A model generated the notes under the pieces. That model was not told the origin of the DNA. It made no database searches and saw only the letters and a list, made by a program, of their open reading frames with translations. The position numbers and the translations under genes are program-made. From the NCBI GenBank assembly GCA_039630415.1, contig JBCNVB010000010.1, positions 1-13,362 on the forward strand: a DNA stretch of 13,362 nt, read 5' to 3'. Below are positions 1 to 13,362 of the stretch, piece after piece (positions within the stretch are counted from its first letter, which is position 1; every line of letters starts with the position of its first letter). This DNA comes from a bacterium. Its GTDB lineage: Bacteria; DRYD01.

Positions 1-189
1 GAGGAAAGCTAGAATAAAGATTAGAGCTATTAAGGAAGCTAAGGTTATTTCTAGTATAATGAATCCTTTAATAGTGTTTGTATGTCGAGGTGGCCGGACT
101 CGAACCGGCGACCTCAGGCCCCCCATGCCTGCGCTCTTACCAAACTGAGCTACACCCCGACTTGCCCCTCCTATTCTATCTTCTCCCAT
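1..189 (-). CDS. Putative type IV prepilin/pseudopilin-like protein, 5' part only (runs off the left edge); the leader is encoded across the tRNA-Pro gene
   Basis: Manual minus-strand translation from ATG 189: MGEDRIGGASRGVAQFGKSAGMGGLRSPVRVRPPRHTNTIKG|FIILEITLASLIALIFILAFL, 63 codons with no stop. It has a class III signal motif: K-G|F, Glu at +5, then a hydrophobic stretch. An in-frame TGA at 213-211 bounds it upstream, and a purine-rich RBS-like tract (AAGGG, 200-196) lies 6 nt before the ATG. A second in-frame ATG is at 126. It is missing from the ORF track, probably because the stop is outside the window. Start position uncertain. Confidence 0.6.
   Translation of the reverse strand, partial: MGEDRIGGASRGVAQFGKSAGMGGLRSPVRVRPPRHTNTIKGFIILEITLASLIALIFILAFL
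85..159 (-). tRNA. tRNA-Pro (anticodon GGG), CCA not encoded
   Basis: The reverse complement folds as a cloverleaf: CGGGGTG TA GCTC AGTTTGGTAA GAGC G CAGGC ATGGGGG GCCTG AGGTC GCCGG TTCGAGT CCGGC CACCTCG A. C1-G72 and A73 are typical of bacterial tRNA-Pro. It is followed by CATA rather than CCA. Confidence 0.97.
173..178 (-). promoter_or_regulatory. Possible -10 element (TAGAAT) for the tRNA-Pro gene
   Basis: TAGAAT (5/6 match to TATAAT) ends 13 nt upstream of the tRNA 5' end. No good -35 at 17 bp spacing. Confidence 0.3.
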
Positions 190-224: not shown

Positions 225-1640
225 CTATTCTAACTTAATAACAAAAGTTCTAAAAATACCTCCACTCCCAAAAGTTACTCCAGTTAGATAAATAAAATTA
301 TTCATATCAATGAATAAAGAACGTCCTTGGTCAGCATTACCAGTTAAACTATCAAAAACCAATATCCCGTCATTAAAAAAACTGTTATCTAGCGTTCCAT
401 CAGGATTTAATCTCATCAACACCAAACTTATACGATTATTAACAACACTAATCCCAGTTACATAAATCCTATTATTGTTATCAATAGAGATTGATCTTGC
501 TATATCCTCTCTATTTCCAGCCTCAATATCAAAAATAGCAATTCCATTATTTCCAAAATTTGCATCAAAACTTCCATCGTAGTTCAATCTAATTACAACC
601 CATTTAGATTCAGTTCCCCACCACATAGAAGTACCTGCTATGTATACTTTACTGTTATTGTCAGGGTAGATAGATAAAGCATGATTGTAATATAGCGGAT
701 CAGGTACAATATTTGAAATTATTAAGATACCATCTCCAGAAAAGGTATTATCAAAACTACCATTATTGTTTAACCTTACAACAAGCATTTGCCAGGTACT
801 ACTTATATCAATATCTCCACAAGCATATATTTTATCATTTTTTAAAGCTATAGAGCGAATATAAGAATTGTATGATGAATATGGAGAAATATTAAGTCTT
901 ACTATACCTGAATCTCCAAAGTTATTATCGTAAGTTCCATCATAATTTAATCTGAGAATTGCCATTTTGGCCCAACTCCAACCGCCAACATAAATCTTAT
1001 TGTTATTTACCACAATGGAGTTACCAACATCCCAATCATCTACATTATTGTTGTAAGTATTTATCATTTCACCAATAAATATTCCATCCGTATTAAAAGA
1101 ATTATCTAAATTTCCATATTCATCCAGCCTTAGAACTATTAAATCAGGATTTTCAACTCCAGGTATATAACTGTATCCAGTGATATAAGTTTTGTTATTA
1201 TCATCTACATAAATAGCAAAACCTAAATCTCCGGAATTTTGACCAATAATGTTATCAAAAACAGCAACTCCATCCCCTGAAAAACTGTTATCATATGTAC
1301 CATCACTGTTAAACCTAAAAACCATAAGATCATACATATTATTCAAAAATCTTGTTCCTACTAGGTATACTTTATTGTTTTTAACATATATAGAACTTTC
1401 TGTACCCATATCATCCTCAACAAATACATTATCGATAAGAATATACGAGTCATTATCACCATCTAGGTCTATATCTCTTTGTTGGTCAGGGCCAAAGTTA
1501 TCAGATACTTCATTTACAGTAGTGTTTTCTATTGTATTTTGTGTTAAGCATATTAAACTCCTGTATTTGCATGAATATAGAAATACTATTTTTATAAACA
1601 AAAGTACGAATATGGAAACTATAATTAAAGTTCTAAACAT
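225..1640 (-). CDS. Secreted or membrane-anchored delta-60 repeat (DUF5122-type) beta-propeller protein
   Basis: Six copies of the R[LF]NxDGxxDxxFxxxG motif (RFNSDGTYDNSFSGDG, RLDEYGNLDNSFNTDG, RLNYDGTYDNNFGDSG, RLNNNGSFDNTFSGDG, RLNYDGSFDANFGNNG, RLNPDGTLDNSFFNDG), each preceded by a [KR][IVT]Y-x-x-G strand. Hydrophobic N-terminus. RBS-like GAAGGGAAG before the ATG. Confidence 0.85.
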   Translation of the reverse strand: MFRTLIIVSIFVLLFIKIVFLYSCKYRSLICLTQNTIENTTVNEVSDNFGPDQQRDIDLDGDNDSYILIDNVFVEDDMGTESSIYVKNNKVYLVGTRFLNNMYDLMVFRFNSDGTYDNSFSGDGVAVFDNIIGQNSGDLGFAIYVDDNNKTYITGYSYIPGVENPDLIVLRLDEYGNLDNSFNTDGIFIGEMINTYNNNVDDWDVGNSIVVNNNKIYVGGWSWAKMAILRLNYDGTYDNNFGDSGIVRLNISPYSSYNSYIRSIALKNDKIYACGDIDISSTWQMLVVRLNNNGSFDNTFSGDGILIISNIVPDPLYYNHALSIYPDNNSKVYIAGTSMWWGTESKWVVIRLNYDGSFDANFGNNGIAIFDIEAGNREDIARSISIDNNNRIYVTGISVVNNRISLVLMRLNPDGTLDNSFFNDGILVFDSLTGNADQGRSLFIDMNNFIYLTGVTFGSGGIFRTFVIKLE

Positions 1641-1750
1641 AACTTCCCTTCTAATATATCTTTCTTCTATTACCTATCTTTTCCCTTACTCTACGCCCTT
1701 GTAATACCAAAAGGGTAATCAGAACATAAATAAAATTATTAATCTTAGAA

Positions 1751-1757
1751 AGGAGGT
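1751..1757 (+). promoter_or_regulatory. Shine-Dalgarno site of the HD-domain gene
   Basis: AGGAGGT, then an A8 spacer, then the TTG start at 1766. Confidence 0.8.
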
Positions 1758-1765
1758 AAAAAAAA

Positions 1766-2446
1766 TTGACCTATTTGAAGCAAGTTCTTTATGAGCTTGA
1801 GAGAAATCCAAAAGTTTTGTTTACTTTGCAAAAAGCTAATTCCAATTTAAAGGCATGGGGTTATACAGAGCACGGAATAAGGCATGCTAAAATAACATCA
1901 CAAAGAGCTATATATATTCTCCAGAAACTATCCTACCCCGAAGAAGAAGTATACCTTGCAGGTATAGCAGGTTTCCTACATGATATAGGAAACGTAATAT
2001 CAAGATCAAACCACGAAATTAGTGGTGCACTCCTAGCTATGGAAATCCTTAAGGAAATGAACGTAAAGTATGAAGATATTATAAGAGTAATGTCTGCAAT
2101 AGGGTCACATGAAGATAATAGCTTCCTTGATATACCAGATAGTATAGCAGCTTCATTAGTAATAGCAGATAAAAGTGATGTACACAGAAGCAGAGTGCAA
2201 AACACAGATATCAAATCTTTTGACATACATGATAGAGTCAACTATGCAGTAGAAAAAGATGTACTAATCATCAACAAAAATCACAATAAAAACGATATTA
2301 TCCTTGATCTAACAATCAACACAAACTATTCATCAATAATAGAATACTTTGAAATTTTTCTTCACAGGATGAAAATGTGCAAAAGGAGTGCAGAGATAAT
2401 CTCTTCGGAATTCCACTTAATTATCAACGGCCAGAGAATGGCATAG
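1766..2446 (+). CDS. HD-domain metal-dependent phosphohydrolase
   Basis: Motifs TEHGIRH, GFLHDIGN, AIGSHE and IADKSD give the H...HD...H...D signature. TTG start with a strong SD. Confidence 0.88.
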   Translation: MTYLKQVLYELERNPKVLFTLQKANSNLKAWGYTEHGIRHAKITSQRAIYILQKLSYPEEEVYLAGIAGFLHDIGNVISRSNHEISGALLAMEILKEMNVKYEDIIRVMSAIGSHEDNSFLDIPDSIAASLVIADKSDVHRSRVQNTDIKSFDIHDRVNYAVEKDVLIINKNHNKNDIILDLTINTNYSSIIEYFEIFLHRMKMCKRSAEIISSEFHLIINGQRMA

Positions 2447-2458
2447 GGAGGGATAAAG

Positions 2459-2791
2459 TTGGAAAACTGCATCTTCTGTAAAATTGTTAAAAAAGAAATA
2501 CCTTCAGAAATAATATATGAAGACGAAAGTACCATAGTTTTTAAGGATATAAACCCCCAAGCACCTATTCACTGGTTAGTAGTACCCAAAAAACATATAC
2601 CCACTCATATGGAAATAACACCCCAAGACAAAGAATTAATGGGACACCTACATCTAGTTACACAAAAAATAACCCAACAAAATAATATAAACCACTATAA
2701 ACTCGTTATGAACTGTGGGTATGAAGCTGGTCAAAGAGTATTTCATATTCATCTTCATATCTTGTCTGGTAAAAAACAAGGAGAAGTATAA
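2459..2791 (+). CDS. hinT: Histidine triad (HIT) nucleotide-binding protein, HinT/PKCI-like
   Basis: N-terminal CIFCKI, FKDINPQAPIH, and GQRVFHIHLHIL (HxHxH triad). TTG start after GGAGGG. Confidence 0.93.
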   Translation: MENCIFCKIVKKEIPSEIIYEDESTIVFKDINPQAPIHWLVVPKKHIPTHMEITPQDKELMGHLHLVTQKITQQNNINHYKLVMNCGYEAGQRVFHIHLHILSGKKQGEV

Positions 2792-4122
2792 TGTCTTCAC
2801 AAAACATAAAGAACTACCTCAAGGTTTTAGAATTATACGATCTTACTCCCCAGTTTGAAACTATTTTAGTTACAGGAACAGCAGGGAAAAGTACTACCTG
2901 CCACTACTTATCCCTACTACTTAATAAACTAGCACCCAATATATCAATAGGTCTCTTTTCTAAACCACATATTAAAACACTTAACGAAAGATTCAGAATT
3001 AACTACAAACCAATACCACAAAATCTACTTGAATACTATCAAAATCAAGTGGAGAAAATAAACAGTAAATATAATCTAAACCTGAATTGGTTTGATAAAT
3101 TAGTAGCAGTAGCGATAAACTATTTTATCGATCAAAAAGTAGACTTATCTATTTTTGAGATAGGAATTGGTGGTTTAAATGATTCTACTAATGCACTCAA
3201 ATCAGATCTAAACATTATAACCAACGTATCTTTAGAACATACAGATATACTTGGTAAAACCATAAGGGAAATAGCTACTCAAAAAGCAGGTATAATAAAA
3301 AATCAATCTATAGTCATAACCAATGCAACTAAAGGTTCAAAAGTAATAAAGCAAAAATGTAAAGAAACTAATTCAGAATTGCTTCAACTAAAAGATCATA
3401 TCAAAATAATTCCTTTAGGTTGTAAATTCCCGTTCTACACTTACAAGTTAAAAATTTTACCTTTACAGACTGAACAAATATTGTCATTTAACTCTTACTA
3501 CTTAGTAGAAAATTTTAGCATAGCTTTGCTTGCAGCTATTAAGTACCTAGAATCCAAAAAAATACCCTTCAAAATAGATTCACTTCAATCAGTAATTGAT
3601 AACCTTCAACTACCTCTTAAAAATCAAGTGTTGATATATAGAGACAAAACTCTACTCCTAGACACAGCTAAAGATTTCCTATCCCTAATGAAACTCTTTA
3701 AACATACCCTAAAACATTGGAGTAATTTCGAGGTAATTCTTGCTTTTTCAAAAGGGAAAGAACCAAGATTAATAACAAAACTACTAGAGTTTCTACTACA
3801 AAATGGTATTAGAGTGTACCTTTCTGAACATAACATAGAACCCAAAAAACTACCAACCGAGCAAGTTCTAACCTACTTTAAAAAACATTTCTTAAAAAAG
3901 AATCCCGAAAAAAACATAGAGTTAGCTTTTAACAATATAATACCGCTAGGTCCAATAAAAAATATAGAAAATCTAGACCAAGTGTTATATCGAGCCAAAT
4001 CTGATAAAATTTTAATAACAGGCTCACTATACTTTACCAGTGAGATATATAACATGGTGGAAAGTGAGTTGGAAAGGCAAAATGAAGAAAGGCTTATTAT
4101 TTGGAACAGCAGGGATACCTAA
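2791..4122 (+). CDS. folC: FolC-like folylpolyglutamate/dihydrofolate synthase (Mur-ligase fold), divergent
   Basis: P-loop VTGTAGKST, SKPH..ERFRIN, FEIGIGGLNDSTN, SLEHTDILG, QKAGIIK and C-terminal ITGSLYF. The start overlaps the HIT stop (TAATG). Confidence 0.8.
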   Translation: MSSQNIKNYLKVLELYDLTPQFETILVTGTAGKSTTCHYLSLLLNKLAPNISIGLFSKPHIKTLNERFRINYKPIPQNLLEYYQNQVEKINSKYNLNLNWFDKLVAVAINYFIDQKVDLSIFEIGIGGLNDSTNALKSDLNIITNVSLEHTDILGKTIREIATQKAGIIKNQSIVITNATKGSKVIKQKCKETNSELLQLKDHIKIIPLGCKFPFYTYKLKILPLQTEQILSFNSYYLVENFSIALLAAIKYLESKKIPFKIDSLQSVIDNLQLPLKNQVLIYRDKTLLLDTAKDFLSLMKLFKHTLKHWSNFEVILAFSKGKEPRLITKLLEFLLQNGIRVYLSEHNIEPKKLPTEQVLTYFKKHFLKKNPEKNIELAFNNIIPLGPIKNIENLDQVLYRAKSDKILITGSLYFTSEIYNMVESELERQNEERLIIWNSRDT

Positions 4123-4906
4123 TAGCTCTAAAAAAGATACATTTTCCGGAATATCCAGATTAAGAGAGCTAAACTTAGATGCGATGGAACTAGAATTCGT
4201 TCATGGAGTTAACATATCCTATGTAAATGCTCAAAAAATAAACATGTTCTCTCAAAAAAATAACATACATTTATCCTGCCATGCACCATACTATATAAAT
4301 CTCAATTCCTTAGATCAGGAAAAAATTGAAGCTAGCATACACAGGATAATTAAAACAGCAGAAATTTCACATGTATGCGGAGCAAAAAATATAGTCGTTC
4401 ACCCCGGCTACTACCATAATATGGATAAACTACAAGTATACAACAATATAAAAAAGTCATTGGAAAAAGTACTAGACGAAATAAAAGATCTTAACATAGT
4501 GATTAGAATAGAAACAATGGGAAAGTTAAGTCAATTCGGTTCACTTGAAGAAGTTCTAAACTTATGTCAAGACTTAGGGCCACAAATAATGCCCTGTATA
4601 GATTTTGCTCACCTACACGCTAGAAATATAGGGAAAATAAATACTTACCAAGAGTTTTGTAAAGTATTAGATGACGTACAACATAAGCTTGGTAAAAAAG
4701 CTCTTAAAGACCTACATATACACGTTTCCGGAATAAAATATTCCGATAAAGGAGAACTACATCATCTCAACCTAAAAGAATCCGATTTTAATTACATTGA
4801 TCTAATCAAAGCACTAAAAGATTTAGAAGTAGAGGGTATGTTGATTTGTGAAAGTCCAAATCTTGAAGAAGACTGTATGATGCTAAAACAACTATACCTA
4901 AATTAA
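4082..4906 (+). CDS. nfo: Endonuclease IV-like TIM-barrel AP endonuclease (archaeal-type Nfo family)
   Basis: Motifs FGTAGIP, ELEFVHGV, HAPYYINL, VHPGYY, IETMGK..QFG, IDFAHLH, HIHVSGI, GELHHL and ICESP. The ATG at 4082 (MKKGLLFG, preceded by GAAAGG) is preferred over the ORF-track start at 4040. Overlaps the folC end by 41 nt. Confidence 0.85.
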   Translation: MKKGLLFGTAGIPNSSKKDTFSGISRLRELNLDAMELEFVHGVNISYVNAQKINMFSQKNNIHLSCHAPYYINLNSLDQEKIEASIHRIIKTAEISHVCGAKNIVVHPGYYHNMDKLQVYNNIKKSLEKVLDEIKDLNIVIRIETMGKLSQFGSLEEVLNLCQDLGPQIMPCIDFAHLHARNIGKINTYQEFCKVLDDVQHKLGKKALKDLHIHVSGIKYSDKGELHHLNLKESDFNYIDLIKALKDLEVEGMLICESPNLEEDCMMLKQLYLN

Positions 4907-4914
4907 CTATCGTC

Positions 4915-6117
4915 TTACTGGTTATTACTGTAGTAAATTTTGCTTATCTGCCTCAAAGCAAACGGTGCTATAAAAGTGGTTATTAGAACTACAAAAATAA
5001 TCACAGCGTAAAGAAGATCATTAAATATTTTAGCTTGTCTACCAAATTCAGCAAAAATAAGTCCAACTTCACCTCTAGGTAGCATGGAAAAACCTATCAT
5101 TAGTTTCTCCCTAAAACTGACATTAACAAAAAATCCAGCTATTACTTTAGATACAATAGCGACTAATCCTATAACAAAAGACAAAACCCAAAATTCATAT
5201 GATCCAAAATTAATAGCTTTCAAGTTTACCTGCAGCCCAATGAAAACGAAAAAAACAGGAGTAAATAGCCAGATTAGAGGAAGTATAGAGTGTTCCACTT
5301 TTTCAGCTGTTTGTTTTTTAGTTGACAGAAACTTTAAGTAAGGTATGTTAAATCCCCTAGATAAAGCTAGTCCAACAATAAATGCTCCTAATATTTCAGG
5401 TGATCCAAACTTGTAGGCAAGAAAAGAAAATATAAACACGACGGAGATAACAGCTGCAGGAATGAAATCCAAGTTTTCTAACTTTTCAGACAATACCTCT
5501 ACGAACTTAGTCATGATTTGTGCTACCAGTGGAGCTAAAATAAAGAAAGTAAGTATGTATCCAACCAGGGTGGCTATTGCATCCACTTGAAAGCTAAGTC
5601 TACTAGACAATTGAGCGAGTGCTGCAAGAGCTATTACACCAAAAATATCATCTATAACAGCTGCACCCAAAACAACCTGTGCAAAATTATCTTTCATCCT
5701 TCCCAAATCCTTTAAAACTCTTACTGTTATTCCTATGCTAGTTGCCGCTAATGTACCACCAATAAACAGAGAAGTTATTGTATTCATTCCCAATAGCCAA
5801 TGACATATAGGGAAAGAAAGGATTATGGGCATAATTGCTCCTACAGTTGCTACTATCAAAGCGTTAACACCTACCATCCTGAGTTGTTTAATATTAGCCT
5901 CCATTCCTACCTGAAACAGTAGCAAAACCACTCCTATTTCTGCAAGTATTTTGATTACTTCATTGGGTTTAACTAAACCCAGAACACTTTGGCCCAGTAT
6001 TACTCCAACCAGTATTTCACCAATAACGGATGGGTATCCAAATCTAGCTAGAGTATCTCCTATAACTCTAGCTAACAAAACTATTAATCCCAGATATAGA
6101 AATATGCTGTGATCCAT
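4915..6117 (-). CDS. CPA2-family cation:proton antiporter (NapA-like Na+/H+ antiporter)
   Basis: About 12-13 hydrophobic segments. Motifs AATSIGIT, GAAVIDD (DD pair), ILGAF, PVFFV, a Lys in AIVSKV, and MLPRGEVGL. Confidence 0.9.
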   Translation of the reverse strand: MDHSIFLYLGLIVLLARVIGDTLARFGYPSVIGEILVGVILGQSVLGLVKPNEVIKILAEIGVVLLLFQVGMEANIKQLRMVGVNALIVATVGAIMPIILSFPICHWLLGMNTITSLFIGGTLAATSIGITVRVLKDLGRMKDNFAQVVLGAAVIDDIFGVIALAALAQLSSRLSFQVDAIATLVGYILTFFILAPLVAQIMTKFVEVLSEKLENLDFIPAAVISVVFIFSFLAYKFGSPEILGAFIVGLALSRGFNIPYLKFLSTKKQTAEKVEHSILPLIWLFTPVFFVFIGLQVNLKAINFGSYEFWVLSFVIGLVAIVSKVIAGFFVNVSFREKLMIGFSMLPRGEVGLIFAEFGRQAKIFNDLLYAVIIFVVLITTFIAPFALRQISKIYYSNNQ

Positions 6118-6143
6118 AGCAAAGATGAATTAGTAATTTAATT

Positions 6144-7154
6144 TTATACTTTAAGTATTTGTTTAGCCATATAGTGAACTAGATCTGCGACTCTGGTGGC
6201 ATATCCCATTTCATTGTCGTACCAGGCTAATATCTTTACCATATTTTGGTTTATAACTTGAGTAGATAGTCCATCAACAATAGAAGAGTAAGTAGATCCT
6301 TTGAAGTCCATAGAAACAAGAGGTTCTTCAGTATAAGCCAATATACCTTTAAGATAAGTTTCTGAAGCTTCTTTAAGTGCTTGATTAACTTGCTGTGGAG
6401 TAACTGTCTTTTCGGTTAGTACTACAAAATCTACGAGTGAGACGGTAGGAGTCGGAACTCTGATTGCTATACCCGTAAATTTTCCTTTGAGTTCTGGTAT
6501 TACTTTTTCAACGGCTTGAGCTGCTCCGGTAGTAGTTGGTATCATATTCATAGCAGCAGCTCTTGCCCTTCTTAGATCTTTGTGAGCTATATCTAGTATT
6601 CTTTGATCATTCGTATATGAGTGAATAGTAGTCATATGTCCTGCTACTATACCAAAATTTTGGAAGATTACCTTAGCTACTGGAGCAAGACAGTTAGTAG
6701 TGCAGGAAGCGTTGGATATTATAGTGTGTTTAGAAGGGTCGTAACTTTTTTCATTTACTCCAAGAACTATGGTTATATCTTCACCTTTTGCAGGGGCAGT
6801 AATTATTACCTTCTTAGCACCAGCTTTTAAATGTTTTTCTGCTTTTTCTCTGTCTGTAAACTTACCTGTGGACTCAATAACTACGTCTATGTTTAGGTCT
6901 TTCCAAGGTAATTTTTCAGGATCAGATTCTTGGAAAACCTTTATCTTTTTGCCATTTATTTGTATATAATCTTGACCGTAAGATACCTCACCCTCATATG
7001 TTCCATAGGTACTATCATATTTAAACAAGAAAGCATTGGTTTCAGGGTCAACCAAATCATTTATAGCTACTAATTCAAACTCTGGATATTTAGATAATAT
7101 AGCTTTAGCGGTTAGCCTTCCGATTCTTCCGAAACCGTTTATAGCTATTTTCAT
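6144..7154 (-). CDS. gap: Type I glyceraldehyde-3-phosphate dehydrogenase
   Basis: INGFGRIGR, catalytic [16 protein letters not shown] and WYDNE. The start is moved to ATG 7154 because the ORF-track GTG (7163) lies inside the SD AGGAGGT. Confidence 0.98.
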
Positions 7155-7161
7155 TCTTGGC

Positions 7162-7168
7162 ACCTCCT
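7162..7168 (-). promoter_or_regulatory. Shine-Dalgarno site of gap
   Basis: AGGAGGT 7 nt upstream of ATG 7154. Confidence 0.85.
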
Positions 7169-7175
7169 ATATTTT

Positions 7176-8630
7176 TTAGTATTTGATAGATTCTTTAAGA
7201 TAACTACTTGTTATTGGGGAGTTTTGCTTTATGTACTGTACAATAATATCTCTTGCGTATCCATAATTTTGTATTATTGGGCATGAAGAAAATTCAGTGT
7301 ATCCATCTCCTCCGTAGTAGAGAAAGTCCACAGTTGCTATAGTATATTCGTTTTCGTCTTGTATGGGTTTTCCTTTTAAGAACCATTTACCCTCTTTTTT
7401 TTCGAGATCTATGTTATAATGAAGCCTAGTTTTTTTAGATTCTAGATTGTCTAGTAGCTTTACTATTTGTTCTCCTTTCATTTTGAATTTAACTACTGTA
7501 TTTTCGAAGGGTAAGATGCTAAATACTTGTCCATAAGTTATGTCGCCTTTGTTGAGTGTATCTCTAATACCTCCGTGGTTATAGAAAGCTATATCTGAGT
7601 TAGTATAAGCAGCTATTACGTTGGTGATAAAGCTTCCCAAGTTGGTTTCTATTGACTTACTGTTTTTATCAAGCGTTACTTCTGACTTACCAATTATTTG
7701 GTTTGCTTGTTTTTGTGCTTCTAGGATATAGTTTTCTATTTTTTTTGATGCTTGTTTATCCGGAGTTATTATAGCATTTATTGTAGGGTAGAGGTTACAG
7801 ATAAAGTTTTTTATTTGTTTATCTTGAATATGTAGTTTTATATGACCTACATACCTTCCGTAGGATCCTGCTTGCACGATATAGATTTTTTTGTTATTAT
7901 TTTCAACGATGATGGGTTCAAACAATTCTGTGTGGCTATGTCCACCAATGATGATATCGACGTAGTCTACTTCTTTTGCTATTTTTTGATCTTGTTTTAT
8001 TCCACAGTGTGAAAGAGCTATAACTAGATCGGGATTATGATTTAATATTTCGTTTTTGTATTTTAGGAGCGTTTCTACGGGGTCAAGAATAGTTCTACCC
8101 CCCAAGGCTCCAGGCATAGTTATATATGGTGTTTCGGGTGTTATCAAACCTATTACAGCAATCTTGATATTAGATCTATTCAGGATAGTATAAGGCTTAA
8201 CTTTGTCAAATAATGGAGAAGAATTAGCACATAGTACTTCACTTTTTAGATTATTAACCATAGAAACAAAAGCTTCATATCCAAAATCAAACTCATGATT
8301 ACCCAAACAGATTGCGTCGAAACCAATATAATTGTATAGTTCCACTACACTTTTACCTTGAGATAGGTTTGAGTATATAGTCCCTGCACTAAAATCACCT
8401 ACATCAAAGACCAATACGTTTTTATTATTCTCTCTGAGATATTTTATTATTGAAGAGATGTATTCAGCACCAGCTACTGTATAACGGTAGTCCTTGTATA
8501 TCCTCTGCACTTCAGGAACTACTCTACCGTGAAAATCATTGATATGAATTATGTTTACTTCCTGAGCAAATACCGTCAATAAAGTTAGTAGGAATACTAT
8601 TAGTGTTGTCAAAATCCTGATCATATTCAC
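7176..8630 (-). CDS. Secreted bifunctional metallophosphoesterase/5'-nucleotidase (UshA-like)
   Basis: Signal peptide ending VFA-Q. Calcineurin-like motifs NDFHG, DVGD, GNHEFD, LSH and GGHSH. C-terminal 5'-nucleotidase domain with NHGGIR, ILPFEN and GGDGY. GTG start after GGAGG. Confidence 0.92.
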   Translation of the reverse strand: MNMIRILTTLIVFLLTLLTVFAQEVNIIHINDFHGRVVPEVQRIYKDYRYTVAGAEYISSIIKYLRENNKNVLVFDVGDFSAGTIYSNLSQGKSVVELYNYIGFDAICLGNHEFDFGYEAFVSMVNNLKSEVLCANSSPLFDKVKPYTILNRSNIKIAVIGLITPETPYITMPGALGGRTILDPVETLLKYKNEILNHNPDLVIALSHCGIKQDQKIAKEVDYVDIIIGGHSHTELFEPIIVENNNKKIYIVQAGSYGRYVGHIKLHIQDKQIKNFICNLYPTINAIITPDKQASKKIENYILEAQKQANQIIGKSEVTLDKNSKSIETNLGSFITNVIAAYTNSDIAFYNHGGIRDTLNKGDITYGQVFSILPFENTVVKFKMKGEQIVKLLDNLESKKTRLHYNIDLEKKEGKWFLKGKPIQDENEYTIATVDFLYYGGDGYTEFSSCPIIQNYGYARDIIVQYIKQNSPITSSYLKESIKY

Positions 8631-9597
8631 TTCTACCTCCCGAACTATTTTTTGAAATCTGTAGTTCTAATATTTTTTGGTATGGTATAGAGTCAAAAAC
8701 TTGCCGATATTTGATGTAATTTTGTGCTTTGATAAGAGATACGTGTAATATCACACTAAGTATGATTAAAAATATGATTTGGTGGTAAAGAATAGAAAGA
8801 GGGATAAATAACAGAGAAATATAAGCCCCTAGTTTAAGGATGTTAATTCTTGCATTTATTTTATCGATATCTCCTCCTTTTATAATAGGCAAGATTAATA
8901 TATTTTTCAGGAGCCAGAATATTCTTGAGTAGTTATAGTGACTTTTCCCGTAAAACCTTTTAGAGTGATTTACAGGAATGTTTAAGATTGATTTTTTATC
9001 AGCTTTTGCAATTATTGGCAGGAATCTGTGGTAACCCGGAGGTAGTCTAGTATCTTTTATGGTATAGTTTTTGTATACTTTTAATGAACATCCCACGTCT
9101 TTTACTTGATATCCTGATATTATTCTGATGAGTAGATTTCCTATAGAACTTATTTTTGCTCTAGTAGTTTCCTTTCTTTGTACCCTATATCCACTTACGA
9201 TTTCCACTTGATTTTGAGTTGTTATGGTTTTGAGTAGTTTAACAAGATCTTCTGGGTCATTTTGTAGATCGGAATCGATTGTTGCTATATATTTTCCTGA
9301 AGCTTTGGAAAATCCCAAACTAAGAGCAGCAGATTGACCTTCATTATACTTAAATTGATATATCTTAACAATCACGTTAAAATCATACTGTTTTTGATAA
9401 ATTTTATTTGTTTCATGTATAGTTTTGATAAGAAGTTGAGTGCTTTGGTCAGTACTACCATCATCAATAAATATTATTTCAAAATTTTCAAAATCCAGTT
9501 CTTTGTGTATTTTATCGAAAGTTTGGAGTATCCTTTGGTAAAGTAATACTAGGTTAATCTCTTCATTATGGTATGGTACAATTAAACTCAGTTGCAT
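8536..9597 (-). CDS. Family 2 glycosyltransferase (polyprenol-phosphate glycosyltransferase, DPM1/ArnC/GtrB-like)
   Basis: IVPYHNEE, IDDGSTD, NEGQSAAL, IDSDLQNDPED (DxD), VSGYR, DVGCSLK, HRFLP and RFYGKSHY, then C-terminal transmembrane segments. Confidence 0.9.
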   Translation of the reverse strand: MQLSLIVPYHNEEINLVLLYQRILQTFDKIHKELDFENFEIIFIDDGSTDQSTQLLIKTIHETNKIYQKQYDFNVIVKIYQFKYNEGQSAALSLGFSKASGKYIATIDSDLQNDPEDLVKLLKTITTQNQVEIVSGYRVQRKETTRAKISSIGNLLIRIISGYQVKDVGCSLKVYKNYTIKDTRLPPGYHRFLPIIAKADKKSILNIPVNHSKRFYGKSHYNYSRIFWLLKNILILPIIKGGDIDKINARINILKLGAYISLLFIPLSILYHQIIFLIILSVILHVSLIKAQNYIKYRQVFDSIPYQKILELQISKNSSGGRSEYDQDFDNTNSIPTNFIDGICSGSKHNSYQ

Positions 9598-9600
9598 AGC

Positions 9601-10227
9601 TTAATTATGGACTATATGTTTTTCTGCTAGTGCGATTAGCATATCAAGAGCTGCTTTGAAGCTCTTTTCATTTTGTATTATTATATCTGCATATTTTTTA
9701 GTTGGTTTGACATATTCAACATACATAGGTCTTACATAGTTTAGGTATTGGTCTATTACTTCATCTATAGTCCTTCCTCTTTCTTTTATGTCTCTGTATA
9801 TTCTTCTTATTAGTCTTATATCATCTGGTGCTTCCACGAAGATTTTGATATTACTAATCTTCCTTATTTTATCGTCATAGAGAGCAAACATTCCTTCTAC
9901 TATGATTACTGATGCAGGATACACTATTTCGTATTCATTTGTTCTTGTATACTCTGAATAGGAGTATATAGGTTTTTTTACAGGATTTCCTTTTAGAAGT
10001 TGATCCAAGTGGTTATAAAGCAATTCCCAGTCTATTGAAGAGGGGTGATCAAAATTAGTCTTTTTTCTTTCTTCCAATGAAAGATGCGAAAGGTCTTTAT
10101 AGTATGAATCCATATTAATGAGTGATATTTTACCATGTATTCCTTTAGAAGCTAGTATTTTTATTATATTGTTTGCTACTGTTGTTTTACCTGATGCAGT
10201 TCCACCAGCTATTGATATTACTAGCAT
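9601..10227 (-). CDS. udk: Uridine kinase
   Basis: P-loop IAGGTASGKTT, DSYYKD, NFDHP, IIVEG, RLIRRIYRD..ERGR and YADIII. Confidence 0.95.
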   Translation of the reverse strand: MLVISIAGGTASGKTTVANNIIKILASKGIHGKISLINMDSYYKDLSHLSLEERKKTNFDHPSSIDWELLYNHLDQLLKGNPVKKPIYSYSEYTRTNEYEIVYPASVIIVEGMFALYDDKIRKISNIKIFVEAPDDIRLIRRIYRDIKERGRTIDEVIDQYLNYVRPMYVEYVKPTKKYADIIIQNEKSFKAALDMLIALAEKHIVHN

Positions 10228-10230
10228 TTA

Positions 10231-10533
10231 CTACTTTCCTTTGTAGAATTCTTGCCATTTTGCTTTAAATTCTTCTTTATTGAGTTTGTAGTAATCCTTG
10301 TTTATTTCTATGTATATTTTGTATTCTTCAGGTACATCTTCTTCTGGGTAGATTGCTTGGACTGGGCAAACGCTTTCACAAGCTCCACAGTCGATACAAA
10401 CATCTGGATCTATATATAGTTGTGTTTCTCCTTGATCTTCTGATTCTGTTGGGTGTATGCAATCAACCGGGCATACGCTTACACATGATCTATCCTTGGT
10501 TCCTATACATTTACCAGTTATTACTCTAGTCAT
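10231..10533 (-). CDS. 7Fe ferredoxin ([3Fe-4S]+[4Fe-4S]), Azotobacter FdI/Thermus type
   Basis: C-x7-C-x3-CPVDC and C-x2-C-x2-C-x3-CP motifs. The start is placed at ATG 10533 (MTRVITGKC) with AGGAGG 8 nt upstream. The ORF-track extension to 10614 overlaps the upstream gene. Confidence 0.92.
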   Translation of the reverse strand: MTRVITGKCIGTKDRSCVSVCPVDCIHPTESEDQGETQLYIDPDVCIDCGACESVCPVQAIYPEEDVPEEYKIYIEINKDYYKLNKEEFKAKWQEFYKGK

Positions 10534-10534
10534 C

Positions 10535-11656
10535 TTATTTCCCTCCTTTCTTTTTGAGTATGTAAACCTTAACTTTTCTTCTTCCCCATTGCATAGCTTG
10601 GTTATAATCTTCAAAGTAAAGATCTATTTTGAAGCCTTTTATAGCGGATCCTATATCGAGGGCTTTGGCATATCCATATCCTTCAACGTATAATTCTGTT
10701 CCTAGGGGTATGATAGAGGGGTCAACTGCAGCTACTCCTCTTTTAACTCGATGTCCTGTATAAGTGTAATATCCAACTCCTCCAACACCTGCAGTGTATC
10801 CCGTACTTTGCATTATTAAATAATCTTTACCGTGTATATCTTTTAGCGGGCCTATACCTATCTCTACTACCTCGTTAACCGGATGAGTAAGAATCTGTTC
10901 TCTTACTAGTTCTTTTGTTTTACTTCCATCATAATCTAGTTTTAATTTATATAACCTTATTACTTTTCCTTTTTTACCCTTTCGCACTAATTTTCTACTT
11001 CCTTGAGGCAATTTATCGGTGTAAACATATTTTACAGAATAGTCTACGTATTCTTGACTCTTTTCTTGATAGGTTACATTTACCCCAACTTCGGAAGGTA
11101 GCTTATAAGCATATGAAACGAGTAGAAAATCTTCTTCAAGATCTACCAAATCTATCGATTTTATGTTTTTTATTCCCATTTTTTTGATATCCCTACTTAT
11201 GACATAGAGTATATCTTTTTTGATAGTGTCTATAGAGTAGAATGAGAAATAAGAAATAGTATATTTTTTGTTGTTAAATATTACTATCAGCTGTTTAGGT
11301 GTGTATAGTTTTTGTTTATCTAGGGCAAATGATGAAGCATGTACATTTATCCTTACGATTTTTCCTTTTCGGTAGGCATATATTCGCTTAGTTTGTTTTA
11401 TTCTTTTCAAGACATCTCGTACACTTTCTGAGAAGTCAGTGAAGATAGAATATTTTTTCCCATCAATTGTGAATTGTAATTTATACTTTTGGTATATATT
11501 AACTTCACCTATTGAGTTAAATCCAAGTTTGATTTGTTGATTATAAATACCGTGTTGATCATAGTAGTTAACGACATAGAAACTGGGTTTTCTGTATAAA
11601 ACAAAGGATAGAGTTACTAAGAGTACGGTTATTACTATTTTACTTAGTATCTTCAT
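10535..11656 (-). CDS. G5- and 3D-domain cell-wall protein (YabE/Sps-like putative lytic transglycosylase)
   Basis: N-terminal signal/anchor. G5-like segment (LPQGSRKLVRKGKKG...PVNEVVEIG). 3D domain STGYT, AAVDPSIIPLGTELYVEGYG, ALDIGSAIKG and KIDLYF, with all three Asp present. Confidence 0.88.
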   Translation of the reverse strand: MKILSKIVITVLLVTLSFVLYRKPSFYVVNYYDQHGIYNQQIKLGFNSIGEVNIYQKYKLQFTIDGKKYSIFTDFSESVRDVLKRIKQTKRIYAYRKGKIVRINVHASSFALDKQKLYTPKQLIVIFNNKKYTISYFSFYSIDTIKKDILYVISRDIKKMGIKNIKSIDLVDLEEDFLLVSYAYKLPSEVGVNVTYQEKSQEYVDYSVKYVYTDKLPQGSRKLVRKGKKGKVIRLYKLKLDYDGSKTKELVREQILTHPVNEVVEIGIGPLKDIHGKDYLIMQSTGYTAGVGGVGYYTYTGHRVKRGVAAVDPSIIPLGTELYVEGYGYAKALDIGSAIKGFKIDLYFEDYNQAMQWGRRKVKVYILKKKGGK

Positions 11657-11843
11657 CTTCTTCCATATCCTCCTCAGTTTCTATTAATCCGTACTCTTCG
11701 AGGGTTTTTTCCAGAAGCTGTATGTATAGACTTCTTTCTATGTAGCCAAGGATATAAAATACTTCTTCTTCATCCAATTTATATCCAACTAGTAAATCCA
11801 TAACTTCTTGGGCTATATCTTCTAGCTTATCTAGAGTTCTCAT
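11640..11843 (-). CDS. Small acidic hypothetical protein (67 aa)
   Basis: ATG with SD AAGGGGTG. It fills the gap between its neighbours and overlaps the next gene by 17 nt. No family recognised. Confidence 0.7.
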   Translation of the reverse strand: MRTLDKLEDIAQEVMDLLVGYKLDEEEVFYILGYIERSLYIQLLEKTLEEYGLIETEEDMEEDEDTK

Positions 11844-11856
11844 AATAACACCCCTT

Positions 11857-12594
11857 TTAGTTAACAGAGATTATTTTGTACTTAATGCTTCTATCCTGTA
11901 CCTTTAGATTGAACTCTTTTCCTATGAGAGCTTGGAATATTTTGCTTGAATCTATTTCCGCTTGTTTTAGAAATAGGTTTAGTTCTCTTAATAGTTTTTC
12001 CTTGTCACTAGCTAGTTCTCTTATTTTTTTAGTAAACTTGGAGTGATTAGATATAACTATCCACTCATTCATATTTTCTATTTGCATAGCAATAGATTCT
12101 GGGTTAGTTTCAGTAGATAAAATTTTTTCTATTTTTCTTTCGATTTCCGGTATGAATCTTTGTATTATTCTTTCTATCATCTTGGATAAGGGAGACTCGG
12201 TTGTTATTGAATATGAATTTTGATCTGGGTTAGCTTCTATTTCCTCGTATAATGGAACTATTGTAACGATTATTGTTTTAGATTGATTGGTATGTTCATC
12301 TGTTACTTCTAGGCTAAATTTTCTGCCTACAATAGGAACATCTATTGATTTCCTTATTCCCTTTACTTTTGTATATTTTTTTTCTTTCTCTTCTTCAATT
12401 TGTTCTAATCTTGATTGTAGATCAGATTTTTGTTGTTTTATTCTTATCAGATCAGCAAGAGAGAATTGATAGTCTTGATTATCTAGTGTGTCTCCTCCCT
12501 CCAGTTTAGCCTGATGAACTTCTTCCTGTTTTTCTTTTTCTTGTTGTTCTAATTTTTTTAATTTTTCGATGATTTTCTTTTTGATATCTTCCAT
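11857..12594 (-). CDS. Divergent GreA/GreB-like protein with a large insertion
   Basis: N-terminal coiled-coil hairpin with tip AKLEGGDTLDNQDY (cf. GreA ARxxGDLSENAEY). C-terminal elements IVG-x4-L, TIV..EANP..SITTESPLSK and ALIGK...YKIISV. SD GGAGGG. The CDS is solid, but the family call is by-eye alignment. Confidence 0.6.
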   Translation of the reverse strand: MEDIKKKIIEKLKKLEQQEKEKQEEVHQAKLEGGDTLDNQDYQFSLADLIRIKQQKSDLQSRLEQIEEEKEKKYTKVKGIRKSIDVPIVGRKFSLEVTDEHTNQSKTIIVTIVPLYEEIEANPDQNSYSITTESPLSKMIERIIQRFIPEIERKIEKILSTETNPESIAMQIENMNEWIVISNHSKFTKKIRELASDKEKLLRELNLFLKQAEIDSSKIFQALIGKEFNLKVQDRSIKYKIISVN

Positions 12595-12610
12595 GGTTTA
12601 CCCTCCGTGG

Positions 12611-13362
12611 TTATATATTCAAAAGTTTTCTTGCTTGATCTATTGTGGCTATGGGTCTTCCTATTTCGTTGGCAATTTTAACTATTCTTCTAACTAATTC
12701 TTGGTTAGTTGCAAGTACTCCTTTTTTGTAGTAGATATTGTCTTCTAGACCAGTTCTTACAAATCCTCCCAGAATTATAGAAGCTACATTTATGGGTAAT
12801 TGATTTTTACCTATTGCTGCAGCAGACCAAGTAAATTGTATTTTTCTTTTATTTAGTTCGTTAATCATAAATAGTAGGGTTTCCAAGGTTGCAGGTGCTC
12901 CCCACCTTACACCCAGAACAAAATCTACGTGTACTGGTTCATCCACTAAACCTTCCTTTACCAAATACTCTACCATTCCTAACATACCGATATCATACAC
13001 TTCTAATTCAGGCTTAATTTTTAACTCTTTCATTTTTAGAGCCAACTTTTTTATATATTGTGGAGTATTTACAAAAACCTCATCACCGAAGTTTAAGGTA
13101 CCAAGATTCAAAGTAGCCATATCAGGTTTTAGTTTCAGGGGTTCCATTCTCTCTTCCTCAGTCATTCCAACTGCTCCACCAGTTGTAAATTGTATTATCA
13201 TTGGTACTTCCTTTTGTATTAATTCCTTTACTTGCTTAAAATATTCCACTTTACTAGATGGAGCACCATCAGGTTCTCTTACGTGTATATGAGCTATCGT
13301 TGCACCAAGATGATAACACTCTATTGCCTGACTAGCTATTTGTTCAGGGGTTATAGGAAGAT
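12611..13362 (-). CDS. kce: 3-keto-5-aminohexanoate cleavage enzyme / BKACE (DUF849) family, 5'-truncated by the window edge
   Basis: The frame stays open to the window edge: LPITPEQIASQAIECYHLGATIAHIHVREPDG (Zn-binding HxH). Also TTGGAVG, ATLNLGTLNFGD, KPELE and VRTGLEDN. The ORF-track start at 13249 is internal. Confidence 0.9.
   Translation of the reverse strand, partial: LPITPEQIASQAIECYHLGATIAHIHVREPDGAPSSKVEYFKQVKELIQKEVPMIIQFTTGGAVGMTEEERMEPLKLKPDMATLNLGTLNFGDEVFVNTPQYIKKLALKMKELKIKPELEVYDIGMLGMVEYLVKEGLVDEPVHVDFVLGVRWGAPATLETLLFMINELNKRKIQFTWSAAAIGKNQLPINVASIILGGFVRTGLEDNIYYKKGVLATNQELVRRIVKIANEIGRPIATIDQARKLLNI

Follow-up and report, generated by a model that had tools for sequence, protein, structure and literature searches.

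A probable PilV/GspI-like prepilin gene that appears to start on ATT directly behind a tRNA-Pro gene, in a bacterial family whose tRNA genes commonly abut protein genes

The window analysed here is the whole of a 13,362-bp contig (JBCNVB010000010.1; contig C2) of a bacterial genome bin (GCA_039630415.1; G000, the genome under study). At its left end, on the minus strand, lie a tRNA-Pro(GGG) gene and, directly behind it, the 5′ end of a gene for a type IV prepilin-like protein, which is cut by the contig end. The bin holds 1.40 Mb in 31 contigs with 32% G+C, at 89% completeness and 1.65% contamination. The source of homologous proteins labels them Candidatus Calescibacterium sp., and the lineage is a hot-spring bacterial family. 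For comparison we used five congeners (G001, G003, G004, G005 and G006), a seventh genome of the genus (G002), a genome of the sister genus (G008), one of the other, sister family of the order (G010) and, as controls, two unrelated small genomes (G015 and G030).

The tRNA-Pro(GGG) gene occupies positions 85..159 of the minus strand (84-159 according to ARAGORN, which found no other tRNA in the window) and has no encoded CCA. It scores 61.5 bits against Rfam RF00005, above the gathering threshold of 29, with an anticodon consistent with Pro(GGG) and a sequence that is 93-96% identical across six relatives. C1:G72 and A73, which we take to be identity features of bacterial tRNA-Pro, are readable in the sequence. 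A candidate -10 promoter box, TAGAAT, lies 13 nt 5′ of the tRNA (173..178, minus strand). Further upstream on the same strand, a gene for a 471-aa delta-60-repeat/DUF5122 beta-propeller protein (225..1640; TIGR02608 176.7 bits, PF17164 117.5 bits) stops 65 nt short of the tRNA.

Past the tRNA, the minus strand reads, in codons, CGA CAT ACA AAC ACT ATT (72-70) AAA GGA (66-64) TTC ATT ATA CTA GAA. The translation, IKG↓FIILEITLASLIALIFILAFL, runs as a hydrophobic stretch to the contig end, and the window carries a class III signal, K-G↓F-I-I-L-E-ITLASLIALIFILAFL, in which prepilin peptidase is predicted to cut between the GGA codon of Gly -1 (64..66, minus strand) and the codon of Phe +1 (63-61); the codon of Glu +5 stands at 51-49. 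A first-pass annotation made from the letters of the window had noticed both this prepilin motif just behind the tRNA and the lack of any in-frame ATG, GTG or TTG from the tRNA to the Gly codon, and both observations are borne out by the sequence. The sole near-cognate in-frame codon of that interval is the ATT at 70..72 (minus strand; ATT72), our proposed non-canonical initiation codon. It is separated from the tRNA discriminator base by a 12-nt spacer, CATACAAACACT (73..84, minus strand), which is G-free and has no Shine-Dalgarno (SD) sequence. Read from ATT72, positions 1..72 of the minus strand would encode the N-terminal 24 residues, I/M-K-G↓F-I-I-L-E onwards, of a PilV/GspI-like minor prepilin.

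Congeners place the start of the orthologous gene at this junction, each with a start codon of its own after the tRNA (distances are counted from the ARAGORN-called tRNA end). The start lies 7 nt after the tRNA in G005 (ATG AAA GGT TTT, MKGFSIIE...) and in G003 (TTG AAA GGT TTT), 8 nt after it in G004 (GTG AAA GGA TTC, with an in-frame TAA immediately before) and 10 nt after it in G001 (ATG, with the leader MLIHSNKA↓F). A metagenome contig near-identical to G004 (L035) carries the same TAA-GTG, a contig from run X16 has the TAA GTG AAA GGA form at the same junction, and in run X1, from another strain, TTG AAA GGA TTC follows about 10 nt behind the tRNA at a public contig end. In a MAFFT alignment of the junction, the window's ATT falls in one column with the ATG of G005, the TTG of G003 and the GTG of G004 and L035, with an invariant AAAG next after this column; ATT itself is present in one of the six aligned sequences. 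Because the relatives' starts share that alignment column, the comparison shows the coding region to begin behind the tRNA, at the position of ATT72, with the predicted leader Met-Lys-Gly. The same comparative data favour what the first-pass annotation had listed as its alternative, an ATT72 start (MKGF...) with no SD, perhaps on an RNA freed by processing of the tRNA 3′ end. A Met-Lys-Gly leader is also forced in another prepilin-like open reading frame (ORF) of G000 (C23:923-2014), whose first start comes after a stop. The orthologues in the sister genus and the sister family do not stand beside a tRNA and have ordinary ATG-led leaders of about 7-14 residues.

The rest of the gene is probably found on contig C23. 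A tblastn search of G000 with four orthologues matched C2:72-1 (residues 1-24) and C23:3-377 (residues 30-154). The latter portion is 65-70% identical to the orthologues and belongs to a stop-free frame (C23:3-383) that continues for 126 aa at the very start of its contig; alignment to the orthologues suggests that this frame is the remainder. The full ORF anticipated by the first-pass annotation was thus found, but on another contig and across a presumed join. Orthologues are present in 9 of 11 genomes of the class. Nonsynonymous differences affect about 20% of sites and synonymous differences about 77% (saturated) in all comparisons, including those with the G000 part, and this disparity indicates that the gene is under purifying selection.

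As to its identity, the orthologues begin MKG↓FS(L/I)(I/T)E or, in G001, ...NKA↓FSILE. AlphaFold2, given an alignment of 8 sequences, models the G003 orthologue (pLDDT 76.9) as a 50-residue N-terminal helix (residues 6-56) and a three-stranded sheet. A Foldseek-independent search with VIA-align over 48,161 Protein Data Bank (PDB) representatives returned minor pilins or pseudopilins in all of its top six rows: XcpV (5bw0_B; Z 7.8, rmsd 2.4, 81 aligned), EpsI (2ret_A; Z 7.3) and GspI (3ci0_I; Z 6.9), followed by Streptococcus sanguinis PilB (Z 6.2) and two Thermus pilins (Z 5.7 and 5.5), with further pilins lower down. The weight of this model-based search rests on the agreement among these top rows. 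ESM Atlas neighbours are PilV-family and N_methyl clusters, the top score (0.97) going to a PilV family cluster. The 24-aa window fragment matched nothing in Pfam or NCBIfam at E ≤ 1, a PDB sequence search with the orthologue profile gave nothing relevant (best E 0.45), and the orthologues score 33.6 bits on the ComGE profile against a cut-off of 49.

The genome also encodes parts of the machinery that such a protein would use. These include a Peptidase_A24 (prepilin peptidase) gene (C16:24086-24442, 56.3 bits against a cut-off of 26.5), a GspF-like gene beside a pilin gene on C8, a T2SSE ATPase gene behind a tRNA-Thr gene, and at least 15 further ORFs with a prepilin motif and a Met-led basic leader. 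Like the PilV/GspI minor pilins and pseudopilins (XcpV, EpsI), the predicted protein has the G↓F...E5 N terminus and, in the model of its orthologue, a long N-terminal helix with a small sheet; unlike them, it falls below the cut-offs of sequence models and its leader would be merely Met-Lys-Gly. We file the gene as a PilV/GspI-like minor prepilin, a class assignment made on modelled structure and language-model neighbours, which speak more strongly here than the sequence models, despite scores below the curated HMM thresholds.

Convergent to the pilin gene, C23 has a minus-strand cluster (420-5308) of four prepilin-like ORFs (121, 212, 363 and 168 aa), each below its HMM cut-offs, together with a gene for a 749-aa FG-GAP repeat protein; the arrangement is reminiscent of a minor-pilin or PilY1-type operon. 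The pilus neighbours expected by the first-pass annotation therefore exist on C23 but not in the window. There, positions 1766-13249 hold no pilus genes among housekeeping genes for HIT, a Mur-ligase-like protein, an AP-endonuclease-fold protein, a Na+/H+ exchanger, GAPDH, a 5′-nucleotidase, GT2, uridine kinase, ferredoxin, a G5/3D protein and BKACE.

The arrangement in the window recurs across the genome. ARAGORN finds 42 tRNAs in G000, nearly all standing alone. A tRNA counted as abutting if an ATG, GTG or TTG behind it, in the same orientation, began an ORF of 60 aa or longer. By this rule a start lies within 25 nt of 29 of the 42 tRNAs and within 12 nt of 17, against 14% and 7.8%, respectively, for 5000 random G000 positions. 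The relatives' counts cover only those tRNAs in the 29-30 best loci per genome that have at least 300 nt downstream. Within the genus they are 19 of 30 (25 nt) and 13 of 30 (12 nt) for G003 and 18 of 27 and 16 of 27 for G004, and in the sister genus 14 of 31 and 8 of 31 (G008). The other family of the order has 4 of 27 and 1 of 27 (G010), and the unrelated genomes have 1 of 34 and 0 of 34 (G015) and 4 of 36 and 0 of 36 (G030, which also has ordinary tRNA clusters). Coding regions directly behind same-strand tRNAs, the arrangement that marks tRNA punctuation, are thus found genome-wide in this family. Abutment of tRNA and gene is a general architecture of the family, common to both genera, and was not seen in the sister family or in the two unrelated small genomes.

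The abutting ORFs are real genes: 24 of the 32 that start within 40 nt of G000 tRNAs have Pfam matches at E ≤ 1e-5. They include genes for DnaA, ClpP, AccA, UPRTase, guanylate kinase, HemE, IF-1, YbaB, the T2SSE ATPase and topoisomerase I, whose Toprim domain aligns from residue 2. As individual examples, an ATG stands at +7 behind tRNA-His (C23:96298-96373), dnaA (C10:55618-56910) at +18 behind tRNA-Arg(CCU) (C10:55524-55599), and the TTG of topA at +9 behind tRNA-Thr(GGU) (C26:28754-28825). The pairs are conserved: 16 of the 20 tRNA-abutting ORFs of G004 match a G000 one, and all 16 stand behind a tRNA of the same anticodon. For the sister genus the figure is 7 of 15, with a shared anticodon in 6 of those 7. 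Orthologues frequently use different start codons (ATG, GTG or TTG). We also observed that dnaA stands behind tRNA-Pro(CGG) in G008 (L091) and behind tRNA-Arg(CCU) in G000, G003 and G004; a tRNA-Pro(CGG) gene was not found in G000 and is present in G001, G003, G004, G005 and G008.

The sequence around these tRNAs has a composition of its own. The 32 tRNA–ORF spacers contain 15 G in 490 bases (3%), and 2 of the 32 have an SD-like motif (GGAG, GAGG or AGGA). Over the first 20 codons behind them, G makes up 10% and C 22%. The -20..-1 region of ordinary ORFs (200 aa or longer) is rich in G, with a GC skew of +0.33. More broadly, the 100 nt 5′ of the 42 G000 tRNAs are nearly C-free (mean GC skew +0.55; 160-260 in the window) and the 100 nt 3′ of them are G-poor (mean -0.38; 1-84 in the window). 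The same flip occurs in G004 (+0.49, -0.21) and G008 (+0.58, -0.19) and was not seen in G015 or G030. Specific pairing of the 5′ and 3′ flanks of each tRNA was considered and rejected, as cognate flanks pair at -14.45 and non-cognate ones at -14.33 kcal/mol (p = 0.56). Separately, the anti-SD word GGATCACCTCC was not found in G000, probably because the 16S 3′ end is not assembled there.

Upstream of the tRNAs, TAGAAT recurs 4-35 nt away from 12 of 42, compared with 2.1% of random positions, a motif that was picked after seeing the data. It precedes tRNA-Pro(GGG) in four of the five genomes compared within the genus: G000 (178-173, a site that the generic promoter scan did not list), G001, G003 and G005. 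The generic scan showed no terminator-like site between the tRNA and the pilin ORF.

A second gene appears to lack a canonical start. An ABC permease gene (C4:32811-33560, minus strand; BPD_transp_1 35.7 bits) lies directly behind tRNA-Lys(UUU) (C4:33568-33642; orthologous loci L237-L241). Orthologues at 57-70% identity are present in 9 of the 10 genomes of the family that were searched; the best match in G002 reaches 32%, and no such locus was found there. In five of the six genomes of the genus read (G000, G003, G004, G005 and G006), no ATG, GTG or TTG precedes the conserved transmembrane helix 1. In G003, G004 and G005 an in-frame stop directly behind the tRNA-Lys, upstream of the permease, limits the possible starts to ATT or ATC at +9 and, slightly further into the frame by a few codons, ATT or ATA. 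The candidates elsewhere are an ATT at +7 in G000, a TTG in G001 and, in the sister genus, an ATG about 70 nt downstream. These starts are not errors, because five independent assemblies agree. As ATT/ATC starts recur at the tRNA-Lys permease, ATT72 becomes credible as a working start, which falls short of proof for the G000 copy of the pilin gene.

Taken together, we regard it as fairly probable that the window holds the 5′ end of a PilV/GspI-like prepilin gene that starts at ATT72 and is expressed by processing of a joint tRNA–mRNA transcript. A single transcript is the simplest arrangement because the spacer of 6-25 nt leaves no room for a promoter or terminator. In this model, a promoter just 5′ of the tRNA (TAGAAT, 178-173) would drive one RNA comprising the tRNA and the pilin mRNA. 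RNase P would cut the 5′ end of the tRNA and an endonuclease its 3′ end. The mRNA thus freed would keep a leader of about 12 nt, G-free, SD-less and unstructured, and its translation would be SD-independent and near-leaderless, tolerating GUG, UUG and even AUU or AUC starts. The depletion of G would keep the start region unpaired and prevent pairing with the C-rich 3′ half of the tRNA. G000 encodes an RNase P RNA of type A (C19:7860-8172, 197 bits). Many of its tRNA genes have no encoded CCA. The data show where the gene starts, its orthology and purifying selection, the genome-wide adjacency of tRNAs and genes with its conservation, and the repeated lack of canonical starts; the co-transcription, the processing and the mode of initiation we infer, and likewise that ATT72 is not an assembly error.

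Several observations weigh against this account. First, the pilin assignment: the hits to N_methyl profiles looked for by the first-pass annotation came out below threshold throughout, at 13.8-15.4 bits against a cut-off of 21.2 for PF07963 (in three of four orthologues) and 13.8-14.9 against 16.3 for TIGR02532. A short leader means that part of the N_methyl profile is lost. All VIA-align Z scores are below 8, a range that the tool rates as middling, and Foldseek found no PDB match, pilins included, at E ≤ 0.001, its top rows being unrelated phosphatases. Second, the join of C2 to C23 comes from the orthologue alignment only. There is no overlap between the two contig ends, the alignment lacks 5 columns (about 13 nt of DNA) from one fragment to the other, and no other G000 contig end overlaps positions 1-150 of the window (k = 15-55, or by suffix-prefix overlap). 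Third, for the processing model, no RNase Z (TIGR02651) scored above cut-off in the 89%-complete G000, the best hit being 18 bits. A generic sigma-70 scan gave 2 promoter-like sites against 1.3 expected, which is not significant, and a search of RNA runs found none that contains this stretch. Fourth, ATT is found only in G000, about 70 nt from the contig end. The word depth on the adjoining Logan contig is about 9x, and the Logan contigs (X1, X21, X22 and X16) stop short of window positions 1-74.

Finally, the assembly has faults at other tRNA junctions. From the first base of tRNA-Pro(UGG), C23:109066-116961 switches to sequence that is, over the 1.6 kb compared, 97.7% identical to G004:C6; upstream of this tRNA, C23 has no match to G004, and the syntenic orthologous locus, at 80% identity, is on C8. 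Two co-occurring congeners have probably been joined into a chimera here, at a tRNA that they share. In addition, a 695-aa ORF with a signal-peptide-like N terminus, behind tRNA-Trp (C18:14233-14307, minus strand), is out of frame with an ATG 8 nt after the tRNA; the offset is one T in a T10 run and could be either an indel error or slippage.

A further oddity concerns the C8 locus. A 76-nt class I tRNA there (C8:6194-6269, plus strand; L003:1529-1604) differs from the tRNA-Pro(UGG) of C23 by a single change, G35A. Its anticodon is UAG (Leu codons CUA/CUG), at the locus of the congeners' tRNA-Pro(UGG). A normal class II tRNA-Leu(UAG) is also present in G000 (C10:57139-57226). The C8 copy may reflect an error in the consensus, strain variation or a tRNA whose anticodon has shifted.

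These faults bear on the strongest competing explanation, that ATT72 is a consensus error at a thinly covered contig end or a recent inactivating mutation of a true or ancestral ATG, TTG or GTG, with little or no translation of this copy. The codon occurs in a single junction sequence of the six aligned and outside the cover of Logan contigs, ATG to ATT takes one substitution, and the bin has both a probable chimeric join and a frame offset at a homopolymer, each at another tRNA junction. A large protein set contained no copy at least 90% identical to the G000 pilin gene besides itself. On the other side, the rest of the ORF is intact and under purifying selection like that of its orthologues, although a very recent loss would escape this test. 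ATT or ATC is the sole available start of another tRNA-abutting gene in five independent metagenome-assembled genomes of the genus, so that near-cognate starts evidently do serve in this setting, and the start codons of tRNA-abutting genes turn over freely among ATG, GTG and TTG between species. We consider an error or recent mutation unlikely, while giving it serious weight.

A promoter inside the tRNA, or at its 3′ end, that yields a leaderless pilin mRNA with no tRNA processing is improbable. Such an arrangement would suit the short spacers, and leaderless mRNAs with GUG or UUG starts are common in some bacteria, as described for Propionibacterium acnes in the portions of the source available to us (PMC3848588). 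Against it, there is no promoter-like site inside the tRNA or the spacer, an internal promoter would be needed in each of about 30 different, highly conserved tRNA sequences, and the recurrent -10-like box lies upstream of the tRNAs.

The first-pass annotation itself had proposed that the tRNA is overprinted within a 21- or 42-aa prepilin leader, with one transcript either translated from ATG189 (187..189, minus strand) or ATG126 through the tRNA or cut to release it, the two fates being mutually exclusive. It was right that no stop interrupts the G000 frame between ATG189 and the pilin motif, tRNA included, and that the only ATGs of this frame are at 189 and 126 (a 63-aa ORF). A purine-rich stretch does precede ATG189, and in G003 the same frame has no stop in at least the final 30 nt of the tRNA. 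The open frame is unremarkable, because one of the three sense frames and three of all six frames through this G+C-rich tRNA are stop-free by chance. Neither an upstream start nor a stop-free phase is conserved in the relatives: G004 and L035 have their TAA between tRNA and start, G005 and G001 differ from G000 and G003 in phase relative to the tRNA, and ATG189 is not conserved and lies 5′ of the recurrent TAGAAT box, so that we reject it as the start of the pilin gene. With ATG126 merely part of the conserved anticodon loop, orthologues that all start after the tRNA, and sister-genus orthologues that have ordinary leaders and no adjoining tRNA, translation through the tRNA is hardly credible, and the claim of a tRNA overprinted in a protein leader should be dropped.

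The processing model resembles the tRNA punctuation of mitochondria, a concept that reportedly goes back to Ojala, Montoya and Attardi in 1981. Mitochondrial mRNAs are leaderless and can start on AUU or AUA. The likeness lies in tRNAs that abut coding 5′ ends, mRNAs without an SD and with little or no leader, and AUU/AUA-type starts, such as those treated in the portions available to us of the mitochondrial literature (PMC11775629, PMC8437803). In mitochondria, excision of the tRNA defines the 5′ end of the mRNA, a step that we can here only propose. Further, and unlike mitochondria, the organisms here are free-living bacteria with about 1,400 genes. Their tRNAs abut a gene on the 3′ side only, at a distance of 6-25 nt, and each tRNA seems to have its own promoter, with no long polycistron (the upstream gene in the window is 65 nt off).

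Among bacteria, several partial likenesses exist. In the Escherichia coli thrU-tyrU-glyT-thrT-tufB operon, a protein gene is transcribed behind tRNAs from the tRNA promoter. Operons of this type are isolated and have a normal SD-bearing leader, whereas here 29 of 42 tRNAs are involved, singly, with G-free, SD-less spacers and conserved tRNA–gene pairs. The E. coli infC gene starts on an AUU read by the initiator tRNA, has an SD, and uses this start for the autoregulation of IF3. The near-cognate AUU start is alike; the differences are that ATT or ATC here stands 7-12 nt behind a tRNA with no SD, and that the genes are a minor pilin and an ABC permease. The leaderless mRNAs of Actinobacteria and Deinococcus likewise initiate independently of an SD at or near the 5′ end and tolerate GUG and UUG. 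Their 5′ ends are transcription starts, whereas here a tRNA would be cut off, with a G-free leader of 6-25 nt remaining. P. acnes combines individually transcribed tRNAs with many leaderless mRNAs, whose starts are 29% GUG and 3% UUG, and the portions available to us of that source do not report tRNA–ORF abutment (PMC3848588). Populations of Calescamantes and Calescibacterium are described with no mention of such abutment in the accessible portions of two papers (PMC4791363, PMC11696919). The second of these reports metatranscriptomes from a spring with a community that was 10.8% Calescibacterium. We found no description of genome-wide tRNA–ORF abutment in a bacterium in a search of incomplete coverage, which included portions of PMC4633059 and PMC4227106 and is not proof that none exists.

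For practical work, these loci are hazardous. Standard gene callers mis-start or truncate genes that abut tRNAs; a possible example is the protein of one relative, which the public set begins at an internal Met. Assemblers, for their part, break or mis-join contigs at these tRNAs.

For the biology of the family, about two thirds of the tRNA genes would share a transcript with the protein gene that follows, and AUU or AUC appears to be the start codon of at least two genes in this lineage. More tentatively, the family, with Candidatus Calescibacterium and its sister genus, may use mitochondria-like tRNA punctuation for much of its housekeeping gene expression. The 5′ module of each such mRNA would be a single tRNA gene under its own promoter, initiation would be relaxed enough to admit AUU and AUC, and tRNA supply would be coupled to the output of about 30 genes, including dnaA, topA, clpP, infA and pilus genes; we think this quite possible and stop short of calling it probable. 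If co-transcription and processing do take place, the arrangement would be a bacterial counterpart of organellar tRNA punctuation, and the family would offer a natural system for SD-independent, near-leaderless initiation and for start-codon fidelity at high temperature.

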